A DNA stretch of 15,982 bases from a virus. The notes beneath the pieces are model-generated. The model was not told the origin of the DNA. It saw nothing but the letters and a program-made list of their open reading frames with translations, and did not search any database. The translations under genes were made by a program, and so were the position numbers. The stretch is taken from UHGV virus genome UHGV-0177145; one strand, written 5' to 3'. This document shows, in pieces, positions 2,634 through 15,982 of this stretch. The first letter of the stretch is position 1. Every line of letters starts with the position of its first letter.

Positions 2634-3806
2634 ATGGCAGTAGGTGAAATTCAAATTAGTGCCTTGCCTCAAGCAGCCTTACCAATTGACCTTAGTGATA
2701 TCTTCCATCTTAAGCAGGGTATTGAGGATAAGAGGTGTACTCTTGAGCAATTACTTGCTCCACACGCAAGCCTGAAAAATAATCCTCATGGTGTTACTAA
2801 AACACAAATTGGTTTAGATAATGTTATTAATGCTCTTCAGTTAGTTGCTGCAAATAACTTATCGGATATTGTTAATGTAGCTGAGGCAAGAGCAAATCTA
2901 CAGATTATGTCTTCAGAAGAGGTCAATAATCTTGTTCAACAGCATATTAATGATAAGAGTAACCCACACAATACAACTAAGGCACAGGTCGGTTTAAGTA
3001 ATGTTCAGAACTGGACAACATCTAACCTGTATAACGAAGATGCAGATAAGTATGCTACAGCAAGAGCAGTAAATAACTTGTACAAGGCTGTTCAGGCTTC
3101 TTATCCAGTAGGTACTATCCATCTTTCTATGAACTCTGCAAACCCTTCTACATACTTAATTTGTGGAGGTACTTGGGAGTTAGTTTCAAAAGGTAGGGCA
3201 TTGGTTGGTTATACCTCTGATGCAAGACCAGCAGGTTCTGTATTTGGTGCTTCAACTGTCACTTTGTCAGTTAATAATATGCCTCAACACTCCCACTCTG
3301 TATCTCTTAGTGGTGGTGGTCATACTCATAATGCAACTGTGTCAATCTCAGCTTTTGACTATGGAACTAAGACTACCAACTCTTTTGACTATGGAACAAA
3401 AGCTACTAACACAACTGGCAACCATACACACAATGTATCAGGTAACACAAGCACAAATGGTACTCACAACCATGATGTGTATCCTAGAGAAAATGATGGT
3501 ACTGGTAATGCTGTAGCTGACTCTGATGGTGGTGGTGCATGGAGAACATCAAGAACTTCTAGTGACGGTGCACACTCACACAGTTTTAACGTCACATCTG
3601 GTGCATCAGGTGACCACAGCCACACGGTTGGTATTGGTGCTCACAGTCATACTGTCGGTATTGGCTCACATACACACAATGGTACTGTGACAGTTTCTTC
3701 TTCTGAGCATACGCATAGTGGAAACACGAACAGTGTTGGTGGTGGACAAGCTTTCAACATTGAACAGCCATCCTTTGTACTGTATGTATGGCAGAGAACA
3801 GCTTAA
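2634..3806 (+). CDS. Tail fibre protein with tail-collar-like domain and His-x-His repeat tip
   Basis: AGGAGA ribosome-binding site before the ATG. Two N-terminal repeats of the NPH..TK.Q(I/V)GL.NV type (HASLKNNPHGVTKTQIGLDNVIN; NDKSNPHNTTKAQVGLSNVQNW). YPVGTIHLSMNSANPSTYLICGGTWEL...LSVNNMPQHSHSV resembles the phage tail collar domain. Eight HxH motifs (HTH, HSH, HNH) in a Gly/Ser/Thr-rich C-terminus ending ...VWQRTA. Confidence 0.8.
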   Translation: MAVGEIQISALPQAALPIDLSDIFHLKQGIEDKRCTLEQLLAPHASLKNNPHGVTKTQIGLDNVINALQLVAANNLSDIVNVAEARANLQIMSSEEVNNLVQQHINDKSNPHNTTKAQVGLSNVQNWTTSNLYNEDADKYATARAVNNLYKAVQASYPVGTIHLSMNSANPSTYLICGGTWELVSKGRALVGYTSDARPAGSVFGASTVTLSVNNMPQHSHSVSLSGGGHTHNATVSISAFDYGTKTTNSFDYGTKATNTTGNHTHNVSGNTSTNGTHNHDVYPRENDGTGNAVADSDGGGAWRTSRTSSDGAHSHSFNVTSGASGDHSHTVGIGAHSHTVGIGSHTHNGTVTVSSSEHTHSGNTNSVGGGQAFNIEQPSFVLYVWQRTA

Positions 3807-3852: not shown

Positions 3853-6417
3853 ATGGCAGATTACAAGTTGAGTGAATTAAACTCAATCGACACAATCCGT
3901 TCAGACGACCTTCTTCATGTCAGAGTTAAAAAGAGACCTGAAATGCTGGGTGATGAAGACCGTCGAATGACCTATCAAGATTTCTTAGCATCTTTTAAAC
4001 TTGAGAGATTTGTTCAGATTGCTGGTAGCACTATGACGGGCGACTTAGGGATTGTTAAGTTACTTTATGGTGGTAAAGCAGTATTTGACCCAACAGGTTC
4101 TTCTGAGATTACTATTGGGGATGTTTTAAAGACTTTTAAAATCAATGCAAATGGTCTTAGGCTAACTATTGCAGATGCTTCAAGGTCAGCAACTGTTTAT
4201 CATACCCTGAATAAACCAAGTCCTAATGAGCTTGGGATGAGAACTAATGAAGAGAATGATGCAAGATATGCAAAGCTTGGTGCTAGAAACACATTTAACT
4301 CTCAGCAGACTATTGTAGTAAACGGAGAGCAGCTAACGCTAAGAAACCCTACCAGTGGGAGTGATGCATTCTCTGCTATCGTAGGTAGAGATTCAAGCAA
4401 CGAAAAAGTTTGGGCTATGGGAAATCTAATTAGTGGTAGCCGTGATTTTCGAATCGAGAGTAAACAAGGTTCAGCCATCACTCTAGGCACAAGTGTCACG
4501 ATTAGTAAAACCCTTGCTGTCAATGGTCAAGTGCAACCTGCTGATTGGGCTAACTTAGATGCTAGATACTTTACTCAGACAGTTGCTAATCAGAGATTTG
4601 CACAGTTAGCTGCTAATAACACTTTTAGTGGTTTAAACACCTTCAGCAACTATATTAGTGTTAGTTCTAATGCTGCTGCTATCATGCTAAAAAATAAAGC
4701 TGTTAATGAGTCTTTGTTCATCCTAGCAAAAGATGTTGAAGACAATAATCTGTGGTATATTGGTAAAGGTGATGCGAACGACAATATCACATTTTATGAC
4801 TACAAAGGTGGCACTTCTATTGTCCTAAACTCGTCTGGTGCTGCATTTAACAAGAGTGTAAAAATCACTGGTCAAGTTCAACCTTCCGATTGGACTAACA
4901 TTGATTCTAGATATATTCCAGCAGAGACATTAAGTACAATTGCACGAACTAATGCAATTAACACGTTCACTGAAAAGCAGGTTATTAACACTAATGGTGA
5001 AGCTATTACGTTAAAAGGAAAAACAACTGCATCGCTTTACATTAGAGCTAAGGATTATGATGGAACGAATAGGTGGTATGTTGGCAACGACAGTAAGGGT
5101 GACACTCTTAGTGTGTATAACTATAAAACTGGTAAAAGCCTAAGCATTGGTTCCGAAGTAGCAATTAATGCAAACTTAGTAATTGGTGGTCAAGTACAAC
5201 CTAGCAACTGGTCTAACTTAGATGCTAGATACTTTACTCAAAGTTCTAGCGACGAGAGGTATTTAAGAGTAAGAAGCACAGGCTTCAATCAGGGAAACGG
5301 TGAAAAATGGGCTAAAATTGCTACTGTTGTTATGCCACAATCAGCCTCCACTGCTGTCATTGAGGTATTTGGTGGGTCAGGTTTTAATGTCAATACACCA
5401 CACCAAGCAGGTAAGTGTGAGATTGTTTTAAGAACCTCAAATAGCAATCCAAAAGGTCTAAATGTCGTGGCTTGGAGAACAGCAGATAATACTATCGTCA
5501 CTGATATCGGTCATATTAATACATCTGGTGATACTTATGACATCTACTGTAGAGTTGGTACATACCAAAATGGTACAACATCAAGAGTTCAATCCTCTAG
5601 CAACGCAAGTGTACAGTTGTTTGAAGTCCCACAAACAACTGATGATGCTCCACAAGGTATTGTGAAGGGTACTGTTGCAAAATACTACACTAGTTTGCAA
5701 AAACCAAGCCCTTCAGATATTGGTGCATATACTAAAGCAGAAACTGACCAGAAGATTGCACAGGCAATTAGTGACTCTACAGACCTTAATAAAATCTATC
5801 CAGTAGGTATTGTAACGTGGTTCAACAGTAATGTTGACCCTAACACAGCCCTTCCTGGTCTAACTTGGACGTACCTGAACAATGGTGTTGGTAGAACTAT
5901 CAGAATTGCAGCAGCAAACGGTTCAGATGTTGCTACAACTGGTGGTTCAGACTCTGTAACGTTAGCTGTTGGTAACTTACCATCACACACTCACAGTTTC
6001 TCTGCTACCACTTCATCTTTTGATTATGGTACGAAGGGCACTAATAGTACTGGTGGTCATACTCACTCTGTAAGTGGTACAACAAGTGCTGCTGGTAACC
6101 ACGCTCACCACTTAGGTCTACTATTGGTTAATGGTGGTGATGCTCAGTACGGTTATACCACTATTGGTAACAACAAGACAAGAACTCTTGACTGGCTTGA
6201 CAGAACTGATAACAAGTTCCCTAACACTAACACAACTGGTAACCATACACACACATGGTCTGGTACTACAAGCGGTGCTGGTGACCATTCCCACTCTGTA
6301 GGTATTGGTGCTCACAGCCACACAGTCAGTGGTAACACTGGTAGTACAGGTTCTGGTTCAGCATTTAGTGTTACTAACCAGTTCTACAAGTTAATGGCTT
6401 GGGTAAGAACTGCTTAA
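3853..6417 (+). CDS. Large tail fibre protein (854 aa) with internal tandem repeats and His-x-His repeat tip
   Basis: AAGAGGA ribosome-binding site. Three tandem ~106-115-aa units each ending GQVQP(A/S)(D/N)W(A/T/S)N(L/I)D(A/S)RY. C-terminus has [17 protein letters not shown] and six HxH motifs, and ends ...MAWVRTA, parallel to the upstream fibre. Confidence 0.85.
4525..5240 (+). repeat. Intragenic tandem repeat array (three ~320-345-nt units) inside the large fibre gene
   Basis: ggtcaagt(g/t/a)caacct recurs at 4525, 4870 and 5188. A 28-nt perfect direct repeat ctaacttagatgctagatactttactca lies at 4550-4577 and 5213-5240. Confidence 0.8.
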
Positions 6418-6424
6418 TCCCTTG

Positions 6425-6453
6425 TTGACTGATTGTTAAGATGGTGTTAATAT
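6425..6453 (+). promoter_or_regulatory. Putative sigma70-like promoter for the small membrane-protein genes
   Basis: TTGACT (6425-6430), 17-nt spacer, TAATAT (6448-6453). A 9-bp inverted repeat AAGATGGTG (6438-6446) / CACCATCTT (6470-6478) brackets the -10 region. Confidence 0.35.
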
Positions 6454-6496
6454 TCTTTATGGGTATTCTCACCATCTTGGCTGATGAGGTGATTAA

Positions 6497-6694
6497 ATGC
6501 CTACAATCCTAGCAATTCTTCTAAAAAATCTAGGTAGCTTCTTCTGGAAACTCATTTTATCCCTTCTAAGTGAATACATGATTGAGAAAGTGTTCTTTAG
6601 GCTTGCAAGATACCTTGCGAGTAAAACAGACACACCTATTGATGATGAGTTCGTAGATAACTTAGAAAAAGCTTTTAAGGGGGAGAATAAATGA
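6497..6694 (+). CDS. Small membrane protein, holin-like topology (hypothetical, 65 aa)
   Basis: GAGGTGA ribosome-binding site. Hydrophobic N-terminal segment (PTILAILL...FFWKLILSLL) and a highly charged C-terminus. Stop overlaps the next start (ATGA). Confidence 0.45.
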   Translation: MPTILAILLKNLGSFFWKLILSLLSEYMIEKVFFRLARYLASKTDTPIDDEFVDNLEKAFKGENK

Positions 6695-7062
6695 AGTGGC
6701 TAGAGGAAGCTTTTAAAAATAATATTGGTGCAATTGTAGTTGGTATTTTTAGTGTTATTGGGATGTATACCACCATGCAAGTCTCGGATGGTAAGCAAGA
6801 AGTGTCTATCACAACAAAGTTACAGCAGTTAGATAATTATTCCAAAAGTAATTATTCAGCTATTCGTGATTTACAGTCTGATATGAGGCTGCTTCAGCTA
6901 GGGATGGAGAACCAGAAAGTCCAGTTAGAGAATGTTAAGGGTGAGAACGCAAAACTTACTAAGACTCTTGATAAATTCTCTGATAGTGTGAACAATCTGG
7001 CTCAATCAGTATCAGCCCTCCAAGCTATTACTGAAAAGAACACAAAGAATACTGAAAAGTAA
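6691..7062 (+). CDS. Membrane-anchored coiled-coil protein (hypothetical, 123 aa)
   Basis: AGGGGGAG ribosome-binding site. One predicted N-terminal TM helix (IGAIVVGIFSVIGMYTTM) followed by a heptad-like Q/L/N/K-rich region; topology resembles an i-spanin or antiholin, unproven. Confidence 0.5.
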   Translation: MKWLEEAFKNNIGAIVVGIFSVIGMYTTMQVSDGKQEVSITTKLQQLDNYSKSNYSAIRDLQSDMRLLQLGMENQKVQLENVKGENAKLTKTLDKFSDSVNNLAQSVSALQAITEKNTKNTEK

Positions 7063-7067
7063 AGTTT

Positions 7068-7100
7068 AAGGCTCCTTTTTACGGGAGCCTTTTTTGTTTT
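7068..7100. terminator. Rho-independent terminator at the convergence of the two gene blocks
   Basis: AAGGCTCC (7068-7075), 8-nt loop, GGAGCCTT (7084-7091), then TTTTTGTTTT. Lies 5 nt after the plus-strand stop (7060-7062) and overlaps the minus-strand stop codon (7099-7101) in its T-tract. The T-run is clear only for the plus strand. Confidence 0.7.
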
Positions 7101-7998
7101 ATTTACCTACTGACAAAGGTGCTTCAATCTTTCCTGCATGTTGGTAATTGTTAATACCACCGATAAAGTCACTTGCAGTGAGGTGTTTTAAGTCACTTAA
7201 AGTGTTAAGTGGGATACCAATCTCAAAAGTTGGTGCATGGAACTCTTCATTGTTCATCAGTTCATAAACCTGCTTCATATGATTCTGATAAATCTGAGTA
7301 TCTCCAAAGACACCTATCAAGTACCGTGGAGTGTATCCAGTCATCTTACAAAGAACTTCCAGAATAAAACCGTAAGATGCAATATTAAATGGAAGTCCTA
7401 AAAAGGTGTCTACAGAACGCTGATACCATTGTAAGTCAACTTCACCCTCGTTAGTGATATAAACCTGAAACAGAACATGACAAGGTGCTAGAGCCATTGA
7501 GTTTGCTGCAATATCTGCTGCATTCCAAGCATTAATAAGCATGTAACGGTCTGTGATATCACCCTTCATCTTCGCTACTAAGGTCTCTAGTTGGTCTACA
7601 ACACAACCGTTATGACCTTCAAAGTTTCTCCACTGAACCCCATAAATCCTTCCACCTGCATCCTCTAACCAATCTTGTTCAGAAGAGTAATTAGAGCTTA
7701 ACCAGCGTTTAAAATCATCTGACCAGATAGTCCAACGTTCTCCGTCATTCTCACCCCAAGTACGGTAACGGAGTTCACCCAGCTTATTCTCACCATTCAG
7801 GAACCATAAAGCTTCCCCAATAACTTGCCGTGTAAACACCTGTTTAGATGTTAAGAGTGGGAAACCAGTACGCATATCAAAACGAAATTGTGGTGGAGCA
7901 AATGCAGAGATAACATCTCCAGTCCGTGTAGTACGCAGTTCACCAACGGATAAAACATGGTTCAGAATATTTTTGTAACTCAAATCAGCTTGTGACAT
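7099..7998 (-). CDS. thyA: Thymidylate synthase (ThyA family)
   Basis: Motifs FPLLTSKQ, EALWFLNG, YGVQWR, catalytic MALAPCH, QRSVDTFLGLPFNIASY, GDTQIYQNHM. Overall collinear with E. coli ThyA as I recall it. Immediately downstream of a DHFR gene (frd-td-like order). Confidence 0.9.
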   Translation of the reverse strand: MSQADLSYKNILNHVLSVGELRTTRTGDVISAFAPPQFRFDMRTGFPLLTSKQVFTRQVIGEALWFLNGENKLGELRYRTWGENDGERWTIWSDDFKRWLSSNYSSEQDWLEDAGGRIYGVQWRNFEGHNGCVVDQLETLVAKMKGDITDRYMLINAWNAADIAANSMALAPCHVLFQVYITNEGEVDLQWYQRSVDTFLGLPFNIASYGFILEVLCKMTGYTPRYLIGVFGDTQIYQNHMKQVYELMNNEEFHAPTFEIGIPLNTLSDLKHLTASDFIGGINNYQHAGKIEAPLSVGK

Positions 7999-7999
7999 A

Positions 8000-8545
8000 T
8001 CAAAAGTGTCCTTTTACTTGTGGAACATAAATCTCAAAGGTTGCTTTACCATCATCGGAGGGTCTTGACTGCACCTTTGTAAATACACGGTTATCATACA
8101 GCTTCTCAAAGAAGTTTTCAAAAGGTAAATACACAGTAGTCTCTTCAGTAACTTTATGGAAAACTGTATGGAAAACTACACCAGCATACGGTAAAGCATT
8201 GACAAGGACACCTGCACCACCAATTACAAAGACATCTTCATCAATAGAGCTATCAAGATACTTCAAAAATGCTCCAAATGACTCTTTACTGGCTTTAGCA
8301 TACATTACATCATCTTTGCCAAAATCTATGCCTAAATATGGTACAGAATTTGTTAAGATGAGGTTTGCACGTTCTGGTAAAGGTTTACTCCCCAGAGTCT
8401 TGAAAGTTTCATTACCCATGACTACTAAGTTATTTTTAGTGAGTCTCTTAAACTCTTGCATGTCCTGTTTATGTCGAGGCCACGGCATACCAGTTGGAGT
8501 ACCAAACTCCCCATTTTCACCACTTGCAAAGATTAGTTTAATCAT
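8000..8545 (-). CDS. folA: Dihydrofolate reductase
   Basis: MIKLIFA...GMPW...VVMGNETFKTLG..PLPER.NLILT and a VIGGAG-type glycine motif. ATG overlaps the upstream stop (ATGA). Confidence 0.88.
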   Translation of the reverse strand: MIKLIFASGENGEFGTPTGMPWPRHKQDMQEFKRLTKNNLVVMGNETFKTLGSKPLPERANLILTNSVPYLGIDFGKDDVMYAKASKESFGAFLKYLDSSIDEDVFVIGGAGVLVNALPYAGVVFHTVFHKVTEETTVYLPFENFFEKLYDNRVFTKVQSRPSDDGKATFEIYVPQVKGHF

Positions 8546-8802
8546 TTTATAAACCCTTTCTTAATGAACCAGTTGATAATATTCTTCACAGCTTTATTGC
8601 TATGGTAGATTAAGTGTGGTGTAGGTTGGTATGAACCATAAGCCCAGAATGATAGATGCTCACCACAACCCACACATGTAGTACTCTCTTCAGCTATATG
8701 ACCATTAACAATCATATGAACTTCACCTTGCAAGTCTGTACACCCACAATGTGGACAACGGATAGGTGTTCCATCAGACTCATAGCAGTGTTCAATTTTC
8801 AT
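8542..8802 (-). CDS. Small zinc-ribbon protein (hypothetical, 86 aa)
   Basis: Two CxxC pairs (CPHC ... CVGC) about 24 residues apart. GAGGT ribosome-binding site. Confidence 0.6.
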   Translation of the reverse strand: MKIEHCYESDGTPIRCPHCGCTDLQGEVHMIVNGHIAEESTTCVGCGEHLSFWAYGSYQPTPHLIYHSNKAVKNIINWFIKKGFIK

Positions 8803-9318
8803 TTATTTAACCTCAAAAACTGGTTCAAGAACCAATATAAAGTCTACACAGTCATCTTCTTCATCCAGAATACCATCAAAGTTCTTAGGAACAAAGTCGA
8901 AGAGGCTCATAGAGTAGCGGTCAGAAGTAATCCTGATAGCTCCTCCGATATTCTCTACAGTTAATATTGTACGGCTTTCTGTTACCTCACTAAGAAGATT
9001 ACTTACAAAGTCATCTAAGAAGTGCTTCATCAGTGACTTAAAGCCTTTAGGGTAGTCTGTACCAGAGTATGTTTCAATCTGAGGTACAAGCTTAACATTT
9101 ATACTAGTCTTTGCTAAGAACGTGCTAGAGAACATACTATCAGGTAACTTACAAACAGTCTTTCCAGTACCTTCATGCTCAATCTCAACAAAACCAGCTT
9201 CATCGCCACATGTAACTATTTTAAAAGATGCTTCATTCTCATACTGTGAAGCCATAAACTTTTTAAGCATGACTTTAAGGAAGTCTGCATGAGCATCTTG
9301 TAAGTAGATATCAATCAT
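8803..9318 (-). CDS. Hypothetical protein (171 aa)
   Basis: ORF with AGGTGA ribosome-binding site, packed in the operon; no recognisable motif. Confidence 0.55.
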   Translation of the reverse strand: MIDIYLQDAHADFLKVMLKKFMASQYENEASFKIVTCGDEAGFVEIEHEGTGKTVCKLPDSMFSSTFLAKTSINVKLVPQIETYSGTDYPKGFKSLMKHFLDDFVSNLLSEVTESRTILTVENIGGAIRITSDRYSMSLFDFVPKNFDGILDEEDDCVDFILVLEPVFEVK

Positions 9319-10198: not shown

Positions 10199-10582
10199 TC
10201 AAATACCTGTGCAGCTTCTGTTTTCTAAGAAATACTCAACACCATACATAGCTTTTTGCATCAAATCTTCTTTAAACTGAATACGATGATTGAGCATAGC
10301 CTGTGCATCAATATCATCATGGTGCTTCTCTTTAATATTTGCAGATTGCAGGAAATACTCTGCAAGAACGCGATACTGATAGTCAGTTACCTTATCAGTC
10401 ATCTCTGTTAAAGACTCTTCAGAGATTGGTTTAAGTAACTCACCATTAGCCAAAGCAACACCTTTAACAATCTGACAAGTGTCTTCTGGAACACCTGATA
10501 AGTCCACATTTGGAAGTTCTGTTGCATTGACTGGTAAATTCATTGCCATAATCATTGCAGCGGCTAATAAAATCTTTTTCAT
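10199..10582 (-). CDS. Secreted or periplasmic protein with Sec-type signal peptide (127 aa)
   Basis: MKKILLAAAMIMAMNLPVNA/TELP: positively charged n-region, hydrophobic core, AxA-like cleavage site. GAGG ribosome-binding site 7 nt upstream. Confidence 0.6.
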   Translation of the reverse strand: MKKILLAAAMIMAMNLPVNATELPNVDLSGVPEDTCQIVKGVALANGELLKPISEESLTEMTDKVTDYQYRVLAEYFLQSANIKEKHHDDIDAQAMLNHRIQFKEDLMQKAMYGVEYFLENRSCTGI

Positions 10583-10626
10583 AATGACCTCAAAGTTATA
10601 TTAAATTTTGTATTACGTTGAGTATA

Positions 10627-10674
10627 AAAATAAGCTATAACACCTGACTTGTCAATAGATTTTATAGCTTATTT
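10627..10674 (-). promoter_or_regulatory. Perfect 13-bp inverted repeat bracketing a putative proximal promoter
   Basis: AAATAAGCTATAA (10628-10640) / TTATAGCTTATTT (10662-10674), 21-nt spacer. On the minus strand the spacer holds TTGACA (10650-10655), 17 nt upstream of TATTTT (10627-10632). Confidence 0.3.
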
Positions 10675-10828
10675 GGCAGATTTTTTATAAGGCTACTGCC
10701 ATCCTTCCATACCAAACCACACCCTGCCAAACCAGAGCCTACTAGACCATACCGAACCAAACATCACTTAAAAACCCTTTTAAAAGACTCTTAAGTGATG
10801 TTGGTGAGTACCTGTTGGTTTATGCTGC

Positions 10829-10858
10829 TCAGTATACTCACCAAATTTTCTATGTCAA
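10829..10858 (-). promoter_or_regulatory. Strong sigma70-like promoter just downstream of the ligase stop codon
   Basis: Minus strand: TTGACA (10853-10858), 16-nt spacer, TATACT (10831-10836). A 10-bp inverted repeat TTGGTGAGTA (10801-10810) / TACTCACCAA (10835-10844) overlaps the -10 and the predicted start site. Confidence 0.45.
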
Positions 10859-10864
10859 CAACTT

Positions 10865-11968
10865 TTATTCGTAGTCTCGAATAACTAACCCAACAGGGAA
10901 CTGTAAAGACCCCTTACGAGTCATCTTCTGGAACTGTACCGTTAAAGGTTTCCCGATAAACTCTTCAGGGTGTTCAGCAAGATACTGTTTCTTCTCATGA
11001 GTAGTCTTCCATGAGACATCTACAAATACGTTAGGAAGAGTCTCTACAACGAACTTACCATGACCCCGCTTATCAGTCTTTACACCAGTCACTTTAAACT
11101 CTTCAGTGTGCATCTTCTTGTGCTTAATCAAGAAGTATGAACGGTGACAACACTCATAGAAGGAGTCTTCAGAGATTGAACGGTACATTGCACCTTCAAA
11201 CTTAGCTTCAACCCACTTATCATGAGCTTCATCAAACTCTTCCCAAGAATTTACACGACGAGACTTAACAGGGACAACTTTACAGCCATCTCTAAAGTCA
11301 TTCAATGGTGAAGTCTCAATGATATCTCTACGCTCAGGCCACGTCTTAGTGCTGTCACAGATATCATACCAGTAAAACTTGAGTAGGTGTCTGTCAGGAT
11401 TGTCTTCATTTTTAATCATGGAGACGATATCTTCTAAGTCCCACCCATGAGCATAAATCTCTCCATCAAATTCATCAACATCTTTGTGGAGCCTTAACAT
11501 TGCCATAATGTCAGGTATTAGTTCAGTAGGGATTTTGTAAACAGTATTCTCACGAGAATATGCTGTAAATACACTGCCAATACTCAAGTGCCTTGAAATT
11601 CTACAACGAACACCATCAAGTTTCGGTTGAGCATCAGCAGGGAACTTCAGGTACTTTGCATGGCTAACCTTTGCAGCATCATGAGCAAGCTGTACACCAA
11701 CTTTCTCAGTATTCTGTGCAGACTCTTTTGTGTAAGCATAACCTTTACGGTCAACTTGCTTTTTATACTTTGCAGCAACTTCAAAGAGAGCTTGCTGTTC
11801 AGCGTTACGCTCATTCTTTTTACCGATGTTTTTAGGTTCTGCTGTATACTCTTCAAACATCATCTTGCCATTTTCTTTACCGTAGGTTGTAATAACTTTG
11901 TCACCTACAGCGACGCATGACCAGACGTTAAAAGAGCCATCTTTATTTTGTTTGTACAGTGTTGTCAT
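10865..11968 (-). CDS. lig: ATP-dependent DNA ligase
   Basis: KLDGVR adenylation motif (KxDG, motif I); size (367 aa) in the range of T7-type phage ligases. Confidence 0.88.
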   Translation of the reverse strand: MTTLYKQNKDGSFNVWSCVAVGDKVITTYGKENGKMMFEEYTAEPKNIGKKNERNAEQQALFEVAAKYKKQVDRKGYAYTKESAQNTEKVGVQLAHDAAKVSHAKYLKFPADAQPKLDGVRCRISRHLSIGSVFTAYSRENTVYKIPTELIPDIMAMLRLHKDVDEFDGEIYAHGWDLEDIVSMIKNEDNPDRHLLKFYWYDICDSTKTWPERRDIIETSPLNDFRDGCKVVPVKSRRVNSWEEFDEAHDKWVEAKFEGAMYRSISEDSFYECCHRSYFLIKHKKMHTEEFKVTGVKTDKRGHGKFVVETLPNVFVDVSWKTTHEKKQYLAEHPEEFIGKPLTVQFQKMTRKGSLQFPVGLVIRDYE

Positions 11969-12171
11969 TTTCTCTTACCACCAATTTCTACGTCAATAAC
12001 TTGAACATCACCAGCAACATCAAACTTATGAATGATGCTTTCCACAGTGTAAGTCCAACCATCGATACGAACCAACTCACCTTCTCGTGGGACGATTGGG
12101 TTACGTTGAGCTACCGTTGTAGTAGAGTGAACAACATCATAACGGTAGATATAGTTTACTAGGACTTCCAT
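11965..12171 (-). CDS. Hypothetical protein (68 aa)
   Basis: ATG with AAGGGA ribosome-binding site; stop overlaps the ligase start (ATGA). Confidence 0.5.
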   Translation of the reverse strand: MEVLVNYIYRYDVVHSTTTVAQRNPIVPREGELVRIDGWTYTVESIIHKFDVAGDVQVIDVEIGGKRK

Positions 12172-12656: not shown

Positions 12657-13160
12657 TCAACTTAGTTTTGCAAACTCTCCGTGGAGTTTTATAGCAGCTT
12701 CACAGTAAGCTTTATGGGCTTCTTCAGGTGTGTCAAATAAACCAAGTGATGTCCTTTTACCTCTGCATGTTATAGCTGCCCTCCACTTATTGCAGTCTTT
12801 AAAGTAATATACACCCTTGTAACCTGATTTGTTAGTTGTCTGCTTTACTCTATTTTGAGCATTTCCGTATTTATCAGTCTCCCTAAGATTAGAAATGTGA
12901 TTATTACTTCTGTTACCATCAATGTGGTCTATCATCTTAGTGGGTTTGTAACCATGTTCGAACCACCAAACGAGGTGATGAATTTTTATTACGACATCTT
13001 TGAATTTAAGTACTTTGTAACCGTAAGCATCAGCACCTCCTGCAATCTGCCCAGCTTTAGCTTGTCTATTCCTGTCATACTTGTTGTAGAAGACCCCTTT
13101 GTCGGGGTCGTAAATAAAATTATCCTTGTAATCTTGAAGTGTTAGTGTACGGCGTACCAT
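12657..13160 (-). CDS. HNH homing endonuclease with AP2-type DNA-binding domain
   Basis: HNH core HHLVWWFEHGY...IDHIDGNRSNNHISNL plus AP2-like SGYKGVYYFKDCNKWRAAITCRGKRTSLGLFDTPEEAHKAY. Start overlaps the last 19 nt of the polymerase gene. Confidence 0.8.
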   Translation of the reverse strand: MVRRTLTLQDYKDNFIYDPDKGVFYNKYDRNRQAKAGQIAGGADAYGYKVLKFKDVVIKIHHLVWWFEHGYKPTKMIDHIDGNRSNNHISNLRETDKYGNAQNRVKQTTNKSGYKGVYYFKDCNKWRAAITCRGKRTSLGLFDTPEEAHKAYCEAAIKLHGEFAKLS

Positions 13161-15841
13161 GTCTTACCTACCTTACCAGTGCCTGTAACAAGCGTCTTAC
13201 TCTTTAATCCAAGATTTTTTGATGCTTGACCATACATTCTATCAATAATCTCCTTAACATCAGGTACATCTTTGGTTGGAACCTCTAAAGAGACCTCATC
13301 GTGGTAACTACAGACCCATCTAGCACCAATAGCGGGCTTCCTACCATTTAGAACTGTAAGCTTGCGCTCTGTTAACTCTCTGTTAGCCAAGTTAATACCC
13401 TCATTCTGCACCTGCGCCTCACTTCCCATAAGTGTGTAATTCAATAACTTATGTGGAGATTTACACCATAACCAAGCTCCAGCAACTTTGATATAACCAC
13501 CTTTGGCAATTGCAGAAGTTTTTCCAAAAACCTCTTCAAGTGCTTTCTTAGTTGCTTTGAAGTCTTCCTCTAGTCTATCAAGCAGTTTTTTAATCTTAGG
13601 TAGACGCACAAAGTAAGTTTGTTTAGTCAATGCACCCTCTTCCGTAGATGATGCCTTGATAGTTTTTGCAAACTTCTCGTCTCCGGCTCCAAATAACAGG
13701 GCGTAGATGCCATTTTTGCTCTTCTTACGACCTTTTGTAATCTCGTGGAGAAGTTCCTCATCCTGTGTCTCCCTGCAACGAACAATATCCTCTTCTTTGT
13801 TAAGACCAAAGTAAATACTGTTCAGTGTATGCGCATCAGTCCCTGTGTAGACTTCATAGAGGTCATTTTCAGCATCATAACGCAGATACTTGTCAGTTTC
13901 TGGGTTAAGATACTTGTCAAGATGTTTACAGTAATATCTACCATCATCTTGCTTAGTGAACTCTACTGACTCTTTACCCTCAGTTACCGCTTTAGTGAAG
14001 TCTTCATCACCCATAAAGTTACAAAGGAGAACTAGCTGTGCTGAGTTTTGGTCTACGGAGATGATATCTGTACCATCTTCACAAGTCCACACCTCCCTCA
14101 TAGGTGCTCCATAGACAGCAGCACCAGACGGTACGTTTACAATACCATACTGAGTCATACGTCCAGTTGAAGTACCAAACACCATTGCGCCAGCACTAAG
14201 GCGACCATCTGGACGAATCTGGTTCAACCAACCTTTTTCATCATCCTTTGAGTTCTCAATAGTTCTGCGTCGGTGCATCAAAGTATAGTACTTAGCAATC
14301 TTCTGTCCAAGCTCACCTTCAATCGTATCATAAGATGACTCAGTAAGTTTTGGTGAAGTACGGATTAAGCAAGGTTCAAGCAAATCTGTGTACTTCTTCA
14401 CAGACCAGTTATGTTCAATGTACTGGACACCTTCATGTTCAACATAACTCAAACCACACCGTTCCACCATCTCATCCCATTTAGGATGCTTTGTAATCAT
14501 CTTTTTGTTGTCTTTGAAGCGACAAACCTTAACAGGACGACCATCAGAGTCTTTCTTGTAGTTCCAGTCATCTGGAATCCAACCAACTGATTTCAAGTAG
14601 TCTTTAACAACTGCTACCTGAGTCATACGAGAAACTTCGAACTCAATTGGTGTATATGGTGCATCAATCAAACCTGTGTAGCGACTTGACTCAAGCTCAA
14701 AGTGGTTAACAACATGGCTGTTATAGTACTTCACAGTTTTAACTGTTTTTACTGGCTTCCAGTCTTTGCACTTCTTACCAATCTTTGCATTCAACTCATT
14801 GCAAATTGCACGAGCATCCTTCATTGCTACAAAACCTTCCTTGTACTCTTCACCAGTTACAGAGTTGGTTGGTGTATAGCAATTCCGCTTTTCAATGTTA
14901 AAAATCTTTGTAGTTGGTTTACCAAATGGCTTGATTTCATATGTCTGCATCTCACCGTTACGTACCTGTTGACGATACTTTGTCTTAGGGTACTTGGTAA
15001 TTCTCTTCAGTCCATCTGCATGACCAAACGCTTCAACATACTCATTCCAAGCTTTTGCAAATTCTTCTCCAGTGACTTTACCTTTGGTCTTAATAGTTGG
15101 AGGAAGATGTGGTTCAACTTCTGAAGCAAGCTCATTAGTCAACTTGTCAAGTTCCTTTACATGGAACTCCATAAGTTCTTTATCAGCTTTCCAACCATTA
15201 ATAGCCTGTTGACTCATCCAGAAAGATGTCTCTTTAGCTCGCATATAGGTTTCATAAGTGTCTATGCCACACTTCTTAAGCTTGAGATATTCATTATCAA
15301 GTGCCCGTTTAGTTTTGGCGTTAATGCGAATATCTTCTACAACACGAGTGAAGATTTCTGCATTCCACACACCCCAATGTTCAATCTCTGGTTTACGTAC
15401 ACCAACACGAGCACCCCATGCTGCCAAGCCATGAGCACCTTTATAGCCCTTTGGAGTTGGTCTATCCATCCACTGAACACGAGATTGGATAAGAGAATCC
15501 TGAAAGAAATTGCTCCACGGCTTACACTTTGGATTATCAAAGTTCCATAAATCAGGTGCAATGTGATTGAAAACCCACCAGTCATACCCCAGACCATTAT
15601 GGATGCAAAGTCGTTTTGCCTTTAACGCAAACTCAACACCTTCACGCAAGCCACCCTTAATGTACTTGGTATACTTGTGACCGAGGATAGGCTCATCTGT
15701 AAAGACCCATACAGGTGGCTCTTCATCGTCAGATTTATAGTCTGCGAAAGCCATTACGTGCACTTTAGTGAACTCAAGGAGTAAACCATCAGTTTCTGTA
15801 TCACCAACTAAATGTAAGTTTTTAAAATCTACGTTTTCCAT
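13142..15841 (-). CDS. Family A (T7-like) DNA polymerase with 3'-5' exonuclease domain
   Basis: Exo motifs DTETDG and HNGLGYD. Polymerase motif B KSKNGIYALLFGAGDEKF (T7-like), motif C SYHDEV, motif A-like VDQNSAQLVLL. Start moved from the track (15871) to ATG 15839-15841, which has a GAGGGAG ribosome-binding site 6 nt upstream. Confidence 0.9.
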   Translation of the reverse strand: MENVDFKNLHLVGDTETDGLLLEFTKVHVMAFADYKSDDEEPPVWVFTDEPILGHKYTKYIKGGLREGVEFALKAKRLCIHNGLGYDWWVFNHIAPDLWNFDNPKCKPWSNFFQDSLIQSRVQWMDRPTPKGYKGAHGLAAWGARVGVRKPEIEHWGVWNAEIFTRVVEDIRINAKTKRALDNEYLKLKKCGIDTYETYMRAKETSFWMSQQAINGWKADKELMEFHVKELDKLTNELASEVEPHLPPTIKTKGKVTGEEFAKAWNEYVEAFGHADGLKRITKYPKTKYRQQVRNGEMQTYEIKPFGKPTTKIFNIEKRNCYTPTNSVTGEEYKEGFVAMKDARAICNELNAKIGKKCKDWKPVKTVKTVKYYNSHVVNHFELESSRYTGLIDAPYTPIEFEVSRMTQVAVVKDYLKSVGWIPDDWNYKKDSDGRPVKVCRFKDNKKMITKHPKWDEMVERCGLSYVEHEGVQYIEHNWSVKKYTDLLEPCLIRTSPKLTESSYDTIEGELGQKIAKYYTLMHRRRTIENSKDDEKGWLNQIRPDGRLSAGAMVFGTSTGRMTQYGIVNVPSGAAVYGAPMREVWTCEDGTDIISVDQNSAQLVLLCNFMGDEDFTKAVTEGKESVEFTKQDDGRYYCKHLDKYLNPETDKYLRYDAENDLYEVYTGTDAHTLNSIYFGLNKEEDIVRCRETQDEELLHEITKGRKKSKNGIYALLFGAGDEKFAKTIKASSTEEGALTKQTYFVRLPKIKKLLDRLEEDFKATKKALEEVFGKTSAIAKGGYIKVAGAWLWCKSPHKLLNYTLMGSEAQVQNEGINLANRELTERKLTVLNGRKPAIGARWVCSYHDEVSLEVPTKDVPDVKEIIDRMYGQASKNLGLKSKTLVTGTGKVGKTWYAVH

Positions 15842-15982
15842 TTTTACTCCCTCTAAAATCATTAACCTCATACATTACTGCAAAAAATTATAAAAAGCAA
15901 GTTGACAATGTACTTGACAAGGTGTTAATCTTTGCGAAGTGGGTTTTTACTTAAAAGGTTACTTAACAGTTTAACTATACAG

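Follow-up and report, generated by a model that had tools for sequence, protein, structure and literature searches.

The subject of this study is the long tail fibre (LTF) gene of the virus genome UHGV-0177145, which was analysed in a window of 15,982 nucleotides (nt), i.e., the whole stretch of DNA under study. The shaft of this fibre contains three tandem homologous units, and comparison with related fibres makes it probable, with good confidence, that these units are old bead cassettes which have been recombined at conserved junctions, both in and out of register, under a unit count fixed at three. Judging from the identity of ~90–93% over ~90% of its length to many Escherichia and Salmonella Felixounavirus genomes, the window derives from a Felixounavirus, i.e., a myovirus of the Felix O1 type. 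The fibre was identified by a match to phrog_4277 (“tail fiber protein”), which covers residues 1–854 with 1247 bits, by 120 homologues with 66–100% identity and 100% coverage in the protein database search, and by its position, as the same slot of the gene order in Escherichia phage humlepung holds a gene annotated as “tail fibers protein.” The open reading frame (ORF) at 3853–6417 is the orthologue of gp27 of phage Bas63.

The three LTF units occupy amino acids (aa) 128–463 and are 106–115 aa long. Their periodicity was established by unit-against-unit blastp and a diagonal score scan; the pairwise identity was 30–43% (E from 3e-16 to 5e-25), although self-blastp of the entire protein returned the diagonal only. 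In addition, PF20744 (gp37_trimer, the trimerization region of tail fibre protein gp37) matched the protein in three stretches with 156.7 bits and an E value of 1.6e-46; this score, which is for the whole LTF protein, exceeds the curated gathering cut-off of 21.7 bits. Every unit closes in the motif GQVQPxxWxNxDxRY, and the copies of this motif are spaced by 345 nt and then by 318 nt. An earlier, sequence-only reading of this DNA had reported three tandem units between positions 4525 and 5240 and had quoted the peptides at their ends. The three units proved to be real and homologous over their full length, all three peptides are correct in the translation, and whole units, not only the short motif, are repeated. 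The proposed span was too short: it covers the end of unit 1 with units 2 and 3, and since homology spans whole units, the array begins upstream of it, at position 4234. The same reading had pointed to a perfect in-frame repeat of 28 nt, which was confirmed by reading the sequence. The exact 28-mer CTAACTTAGATGCTAGATACTTTACTCA stands at 4550–4577 and 5213–5240, in junctions 1 and 3; a distance of 663 nt (221 codons) separates the copies, which have a mismatch immediately on either side. A degenerate junction motif also ends the conserved N-terminal segment (aa 121–139), and another one ends the variable domain (aa 617–635); this arrangement fits the five beta domains described for Bas63.

The origin of the 28-nt repeat was considered from the codons used. 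The expected number of chance 28-mer repeats in the 16-kb window is ~2e-9, and given the shared peptide NLDARYFT, the probability of the same codon at all eight residues is 7e-4 under the codon usage of the window. In the unit cores, the same codon was used at 32 of the 71 identical residues, 32.7 being expected from codon usage; in the junctions, it was used at 27 of 36 versus 16.1 expected (binomial P = 2e-4). The excess of codon sharing between units is confined to the junctions, and the agreement of the cores with expectation indicates an old triplication whose silent sites are saturated. On these statistics, chance or codon bias was rejected as the complete cause of the 28-mer. Related fibre genes contain exact repeats between their own junctions, of 46, 44, and 43 nt (junctions 1 and 3) and of 30 nt (junctions 1 and 2 or 2 and 3), and the junctions that take part differ from relative to relative. 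Together with the excess of codon sharing, these repeats indicate that the junction DNA is being homogenised or has recently recombined.

A codon alignment of 27 genes was used to calculate majority-residue conservation along the fibre. Conservation was 89–99% in aa 1–140 and 42–69% in the unit cores, and it reached 77–94% in the junction blocks 221–260, 341–360, and 441–460. Further downstream, it was 24–49% in aa 461–610, 81–100% in aa 621–740 (the collar and the first HxH motifs), 26–38% in aa 751–800 (the hypervariable head of the tip), and 84–97% at the C-terminus. The nucleotide identity to individual relatives followed the alternation of cores and junctions, with values of 30–50% in a core and a return to 70–90% at each junction.

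Clustering of 432 unit cores from 144 full-length proteins at 70% identity yielded 31 cassette types, which form 73 architectures. Different types are ~30–45% identical and differ in their residues at more than half of the sites. The architecture of the window, M-B-K, was seen elsewhere only in its own exact database copy. Many quartets of types were found in all four combinations, namely 66 for positions 1 and 2, 62 for positions 2 and 3, and 112 for positions 1 and 3; E-B-A, E-C-A, D-B-A, and D-C-A are an example. As the types are only ~30–45% identical, such quartets are impossible without recombination. A diversity-generating retroelement was also considered and rejected as the source of the variation: no second copy of any unit core is present in the 16-kb window, no reverse transcriptase is found among the neighbouring annotated genes, and the differences between cassette types extend beyond adenine-coded sites.

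Cassettes were also found to change position. Seven types, to which 184 of the 432 cores belong, are not confined to a single position; type C has 16 members at position 1, 16 at position 2, and 15 at position 3, and type D has 39, 1, and 6. Pairs of cores from different phages that share 90–100% identity across positions numbered 45 for positions 1 and 3, 29 for positions 2 and 3, and 2 for positions 1 and 2. Among isolates, Salmonella phages D1-2, SPJ41, and SUT_S820 carry type D at position 1, DaR-2019a carries it at position 2, and DR094 and DaR-2019b at position 3. Five such pairs were displayed as alignments: the homology across positions sets in at the NTF motif in three of them and already in the preceding unit in the other two. 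Its end falls within GQVQPSD...ARYFTQ in four of the five, and in the remaining pair it continues into the next unit. In the fibre of DaR-2019a, the D-J block, which occupies positions 1 and 2 in other phages, has moved by one position.

These observations bear on the explanation that the repeat is purely structural, i.e., that the nucleotide identity of the junctions results from purifying selection on the connector together with codon bias, while the cores diverge vertically. The tolerance of beta cores to substitution is the first hypothesis of the Bas63 paper (PMC12609058). No peptide of the shaft is more conserved than the junction, and conserved parts of the gene generally have a higher codon identity between phages. 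However, we assign this explanation a very low probability, given the many type quartets in all four combinations, the presence of the same cassette (90–100% identity) at different positions, the 73 architectures formed by 31 types, and the codon sharing in the junctions above the codon-usage expectation. In addition, the ratio of nonsynonymous to synonymous substitution rates (dN/dS) within cassette types was 0.17 (120 pairs), versus 0.10 in the conserved N-terminal domain; by this measure, the unit cores are under purifying selection and are not drifting freely. The variability therefore mainly reflects old divergence between types together with exchange, and not rapid missense change.

Selection could also keep the cassette diversity, if the cores contact host glycans or are sensed by host defence, in which case shuffling would be favoured. 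This idea, which matches hypotheses two and three in the Bas63 paper (PMC12609058), complements the exchange of cassettes and does not exclude it; we regard it as a tentative possibility, on the doubtful side. The other structural proteins of the genus are reported to differ by little more than 5% from those of Bas63 (PMC12609058); of the fibre units, 31 deeply diverged types (~30–45% identity) persist in this one genus. Purifying selection within types is what functional alleles would show, and the receptor of the genus is the highly variable lipopolysaccharide (LPS). However, the matches to sugar-binding folds were insignificant (Foldseek, E 0.1–0.2). Receptor binding in the homologous fibres of T4 and T7 takes place at the tip, which also speaks against a role of the shaft, and cassettes that can be used at any of three positions are equally like interchangeable structural spacers. 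A more specific proposal, which we consider unlikely, is that the three bead positions act as a combinatorial surface array, in which each of the ~31 types has its own interaction (for example, weak lateral binding of a particular LPS or O-antigen structure, or evasion of a host system sensing the fibre) and the junction DNA is kept partly for re-dealing the cassettes. If this were true, the host range of Felix O1-type phages would depend in part on the shaft as well as on the tip.

The number of units in relatives was determined using a hidden Markov model (HMM) built from the three units of the window and run on the relatives’ fibres. The 147 sequences counted were the 120 best-scoring database proteins and the fibre ORFs of IMG/VR loci. 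Exactly three units, at the same residues, were present in all 147 of these genus-level proteins and loci and in 12 of 12 further metagenome loci, and the gene spans in the GenBank Felixounavirus records listed agree with three units. The spread of LTF length, from 777 to 871 aa, arises downstream of residue ~465 or from alternative start codons. A repeated scan of viral contigs returned the same loci as the first one, a scan of genome contigs revealed no fibre loci, and the conserved N-terminal 140 aa, used as a query of the protein database, retrieved eight fragments only.

At a greater distance, the number of units differs. A search of 1.84 billion representative proteins with the unit profile detected fibres with five units (P0121, 1015 aa) and four units (P0122), which are encoded in the same gene order on uncultured contigs of 77 and 87 kb with ~70% nucleotide identity to the window. 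The four-unit protein has 931 aa with its true start, the gene call omitting 30 N-terminal codons, and units 2–5 of the five-unit fibre are 70–78% identical to Felixounavirus cassette types. When both proteins were used as tblastn queries, more than three units were found in no cultured phage of the GenBank collection. Intragenic duplicates were detected on two metagenome scaffolds of ~89 kb: scaffold L031 carries a 339-nt tandem copy with 99% nucleotide identity (1669–2307), and scaffold L032 carries 281 nt at 100% (1436–1716 and 2096–2376, 660 nt apart). As a separate observation, the long fibre frame is interrupted or shortened in loci L043 (2306–4710), L014 (2318–3943), and L021 (2250–4593), which may be due to a frameshift, a sequencing error, or a real pseudogene.

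The sequence-only reading had regarded the 28-nt repeat as a substrate for in-frame deletion or duplication of shaft units that would vary fibre length, and it had named in advance a constant count of three in relatives as the outcome contrary to this idea. Such a constant count is what was found within the genus, and the claim of length variation among close relatives therefore fails there, the situation being different at ~70% nucleotide identity. The corresponding explanation holds that whole units are often deleted or duplicated in frame through the 28-nt repeat and the related repeats at the junctions, so that fibre length varies between close relatives and inside populations in the manner of a contingency locus; it appears to us quite improbable. 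It is true that the repeats are real, in frame, and of about the minimal length for efficient homologous recombination in E. coli, which Shen and Huang in 1986 reportedly placed at ~23–27 bp. The exact junction repeats of relatives, up to 46 nt, the unit-sized duplicates, and the orthologues with four and five units speak for it as well. However, all 147 + 12 genus-level fibre genes have three units, the GenBank gene spans agree, and recombination of one 28-mer with the other deletes two units at once, while a one-unit fibre was found nowhere among the fibres examined. The Bas63 study likewise finds the repeat number constant among the Felixounaviruses of the International Committee on Taxonomy of Viruses (ICTV) (PMC12609058). 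What stands of the earlier idea is that the repeats have probably acted as recombination sites over evolutionary time, as indicated by the moving cassettes, the intragenic duplicates, and the distant orthologues with four and five units; a change of length among close relatives does not.

The likely structure of the units was examined by comparison with solved fibres. The core of unit 2 (aa 281–346) matched residues 52–117 of the T7 gp17 chains 4A0T/4A0U with an E value of 1.4e-5. Foldseek with the LTF model returned 4A0T again (E 1.5e-4), with template modelling (TM) scores that were low, the model being a low-confidence monomer; against the T4 gp34 rod, the matches were weak (E 0.01–0.2), and gp34 gave no significant sequence match to LTF in the PDB search. 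In the AlphaFold2 (AF2) monomer of LTF, the beta cores have a predicted local distance difference test (pLDDT) value of 70–90, and short helices are located at junctions 243–253 and 357–363. The top Foldseek match, the tailspike-like beta-helix of WceF, was disregarded (TM 0.14–0.17).

Taken as recombined cassettes, each 106–115-aa unit would form one trimeric beta-structured bead of the LTF shaft (Pfam gp37_trimer), and it is probably a relative of the T7 gp17 fragment in 4A0T and of the T4 gp34/gp37 rod. The connector between beads would consist of the unit end GQVQPxxWxNxDxRY and the next ~15–20 residues up to the NTF motif. It would be under strong structural constraint, and because of this, islands of near-identical DNA of 30–60 nt could survive. 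Such islands would recur within one gene and among different Felixounaviruses, and homologous recombination in them could swap bead cores as cassettes. Most swaps would occur in register between co-infecting phages, and some out of register, leaving a cassette moved or duplicated. The perfect 28-nt repeat may then be both a footprint of junction homogenisation and a substrate for later events, and products with a number of units other than three would not be retained within the genus. Presumably, the length of the fibre must fit the tail, given that the retracted LTF of Bas63 runs along the sheath. The pathway of recombination, the cause of the length constraint, and any function of cassette diversity are what we infer, and the reason for the fixed count of three is conjecture.

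Several points weigh against cassette exchange under a fixed count. The evidence is wholly comparative, with no recombination event seen directly, and breakpoints can be placed no finer than “inside the conserved junction,” where the sequences cease to differ. The 120 database proteins are the best scorers to a three-unit query, and other unit numbers could be under-sampled among them; the metagenome and IMG/VR loci, which were gathered by short peptide patterns, are less biased, but few. The copies in L031 and L032 arose either by recent duplication or gene conversion, or else through chimeric assembly, although the ~1% difference between the L031 copies argues against a simple artefact. Finally, the AF2 model covers a single chain of the trimeric fibre; with a mean pLDDT of 52.9 and a predicted TM score (pTM) of 0.29, it can be read for secondary structure only.

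For this genus, the arrangement of the repeats, how variable they are, and the constancy of their number have been published before. In the cryo-EM study of the gp27 LTF of Bas63 (JohannRWettstein), a Felixounavirus, five beta domains were described (Sci Adv, 2025), the bead connector was termed a “triple alpha helix and turn,” repeats 2–5 were found to be unexpectedly variable with a repeat number constant across the genus, and the T4 gp34 rod was named as the structural analogue of LTF (PMC12609058). The variability was put down to sequence variation under three hypotheses, and the word “recombination” is absent from the text (PMC12609058). Bas63 gp27 is the orthologous gene in the same genus as the LTF of the window; however, five beta domains are counted in it, whereas only the middle three are detectably homologous by sequence in the window LTF. 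Compared with that study, the combinatorial, position-shifting exchange of cassettes and the dN/dS result are additions made here, and no paper on cassette shuffling in Felixounavirus fibres was found in the literature. The addition is modest, being a further case of known fibre mosaicism; its added detail is the use of position-independent bead cassettes under a fixed count.

In T-even gp37/gp38, recombination between conserved motifs flanking variable segments is established (Tetart, 1996, 1998, as cited in PMC3157838), and short repeated motifs can also mediate internal duplications (PMC3157838). The logic is alike, in that conserved motifs inside fibre or adhesin genes are the exchange sites for hypervariable segments. 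In LTF, too, the motifs flank hypervariable segments, which assort independently with breaks at the motifs, and LTF residues ~374–636 match T-even gp37 with 31–38% identity. The difference is that the segments shuffled in T-even phages belong to the adhesin or tip and alter the specificity for the receptor, with duplications in T4 having widened the host range, whereas in the window LTF whole beads of the shaft are shuffled, fixed in number and moving among positions.

Other systems are comparable in structure. In the C-terminal region of T7 gp17 (4A0T/4A0U, residues 371–553), the counterpart of the unit core is a part that we take to be the “pyramid” domain, and the motif after it is junction-like by eye. 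The solved T7 fragment contains a single match directly before the tip, whereas LTF has three tandem copies far from its tip. In the T4 gp34 rod (4UXG, 5NXF, 5NXH), beta domains alternate with short triple-helical turns. The Ig-like repeats of capsid decoration proteins (Hoc; Bas63 Hex-Dec) likewise form tandem domains on the virion surface in the same phages; they vary in copy number among Felixounaviruses, but the fibre units do not.

The coordinates of the features are given in Table 1. Outside the units, aa 709–834 of the tip matched the T4 gp37 tip 2XGF (phmmer, E 1.1e-22), and six HxH motifs were found in the translation within aa 712–823. In the AF2 model, the hypervariable domain (aa 464–612) forms beta strands with a pLDDT of 50–86. 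T-even gp37 and other phage fibres matched within aa 374–645 in tblastn. The most variable domain of the fibre, aa 464–612, has 40–50% identical relatives in unrelated phages (T-even gp37, Salmonella phage ST64B, a Yersinia phage), which suggests that this domain is widely shared by horizontal transfer; a 1.8-kb “Enterococcus phage” record that also matches it may be contamination. The short and long fibre genes have HxH needle repeats in common, with 80–81% nucleotide identity over ~50 nt (3609–3659 and 3636–3686 versus 6280–6330; 3405–3452 versus 6226–6273), and these patches could permit exchange between the two tips.

Table 1. Features of the fibre region in the window and location of the distant fibres with additional units
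Feature	Position	Strand	Basis
Short tail fibre gene, 390 aa; related HxH needle, without bead units	2634..3806	+	ORF list, humlepung annotation
LTF gene, 854 aa	3853..6417	+	ORF list; phrog_4277; humlepung synteny; Bas63 gp27 orthologue
Conserved N-terminal part, aa 1–127; putative baseplate-binding domain and small first beta domain, by analogy with Bas63	3853..4233	+	Conservation 89–99%, 27 genes
Unit 1, aa 128–242, cassette type M	4234..4578	+	Unit-HMM match 129–242, inter-unit blastp, cassette typing
Junction motif, copy 1; holds arm 1 of the 28-nt repeat	4524..4577	+	Sequence reading
Unit 2, aa 243–357, cassette type B	4579..4923	+	Unit HMM, inter-unit blastp, typing; best PF20744 stretch aa 277–357
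Junction motif, copy 2; 76% nt identity to copy 1	4869..4922	+	Sequence reading
Unit 3, aa 358–463, cassette type K	4924..5241	+	Unit HMM, inter-unit blastp, typing
Junction motif, copy 3; holds arm 2 of the 28-nt repeat	5187..5240	+	Sequence reading
Hypervariable domain, aa 464–612; probably the fifth beta domain of the Bas63 description	5242..5688	+	Conservation 24–49%
Collar, HxH needle, and head (receptor-binding tip), aa 613–854	5689..6414	+	2XGF match, HxH motifs
Five-unit fibre, contig L029 (Logan SRR22802239_169)	6001–9048		
Four-unit fibre, contig L030 (ENA ERZ28599557 scaffold_93)	5911–8706		

According to the ORF map, the gene order of the window comprises baseplate wedge genes, the short fibre, the large fibre, a small gene, and the holin; after the holin, genes for thymidylate synthase, DHFR, ligase, and DNA polymerase follow on the other strand. 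This order is the same as in the annotation of humlepung (~92% nucleotide identity). The DNA ligase region on the minus strand consists of two overlapping ORFs, 10865–11968 (367 aa) and 11965–12171 (68 aa), the counterparts of which are both labelled “DNA ligase” in humlepung; this may be a split gene or a frameshift. A 167-aa ORF at 12657–13160 (minus strand) overlaps the 3′ end of the DNA polymerase gene (13142–15871), and its counterpart in humlepung is annotated as a homing endonuclease. A near-perfect hairpin at 10760–10802, with 21-nt arms, a 1-nt loop, and 81% complementarity, is located in the intergenic gap 10582–10865, downstream of the minus-strand ligase ORF, and a repeat_region is annotated in the corresponding gap of humlepung. 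The GenBank record GU169904.1, “Staphylococcus phage SA1” (147 kb), matches 88% of this enterobacterial Felixounavirus window with 94% identity and looks mixed or mislabelled.

Felix O1-type phages serve in diagnostics and biocontrol of Salmonella and E. coli, and their host recognition is poorly understood. Exchange of cassettes offers a testable answer to the puzzle of the Bas63 paper over the variable shaft repeats, and the GQVQP...RY and NTF motifs would represent natural, tolerated splice points for the engineering of chimeric fibres.

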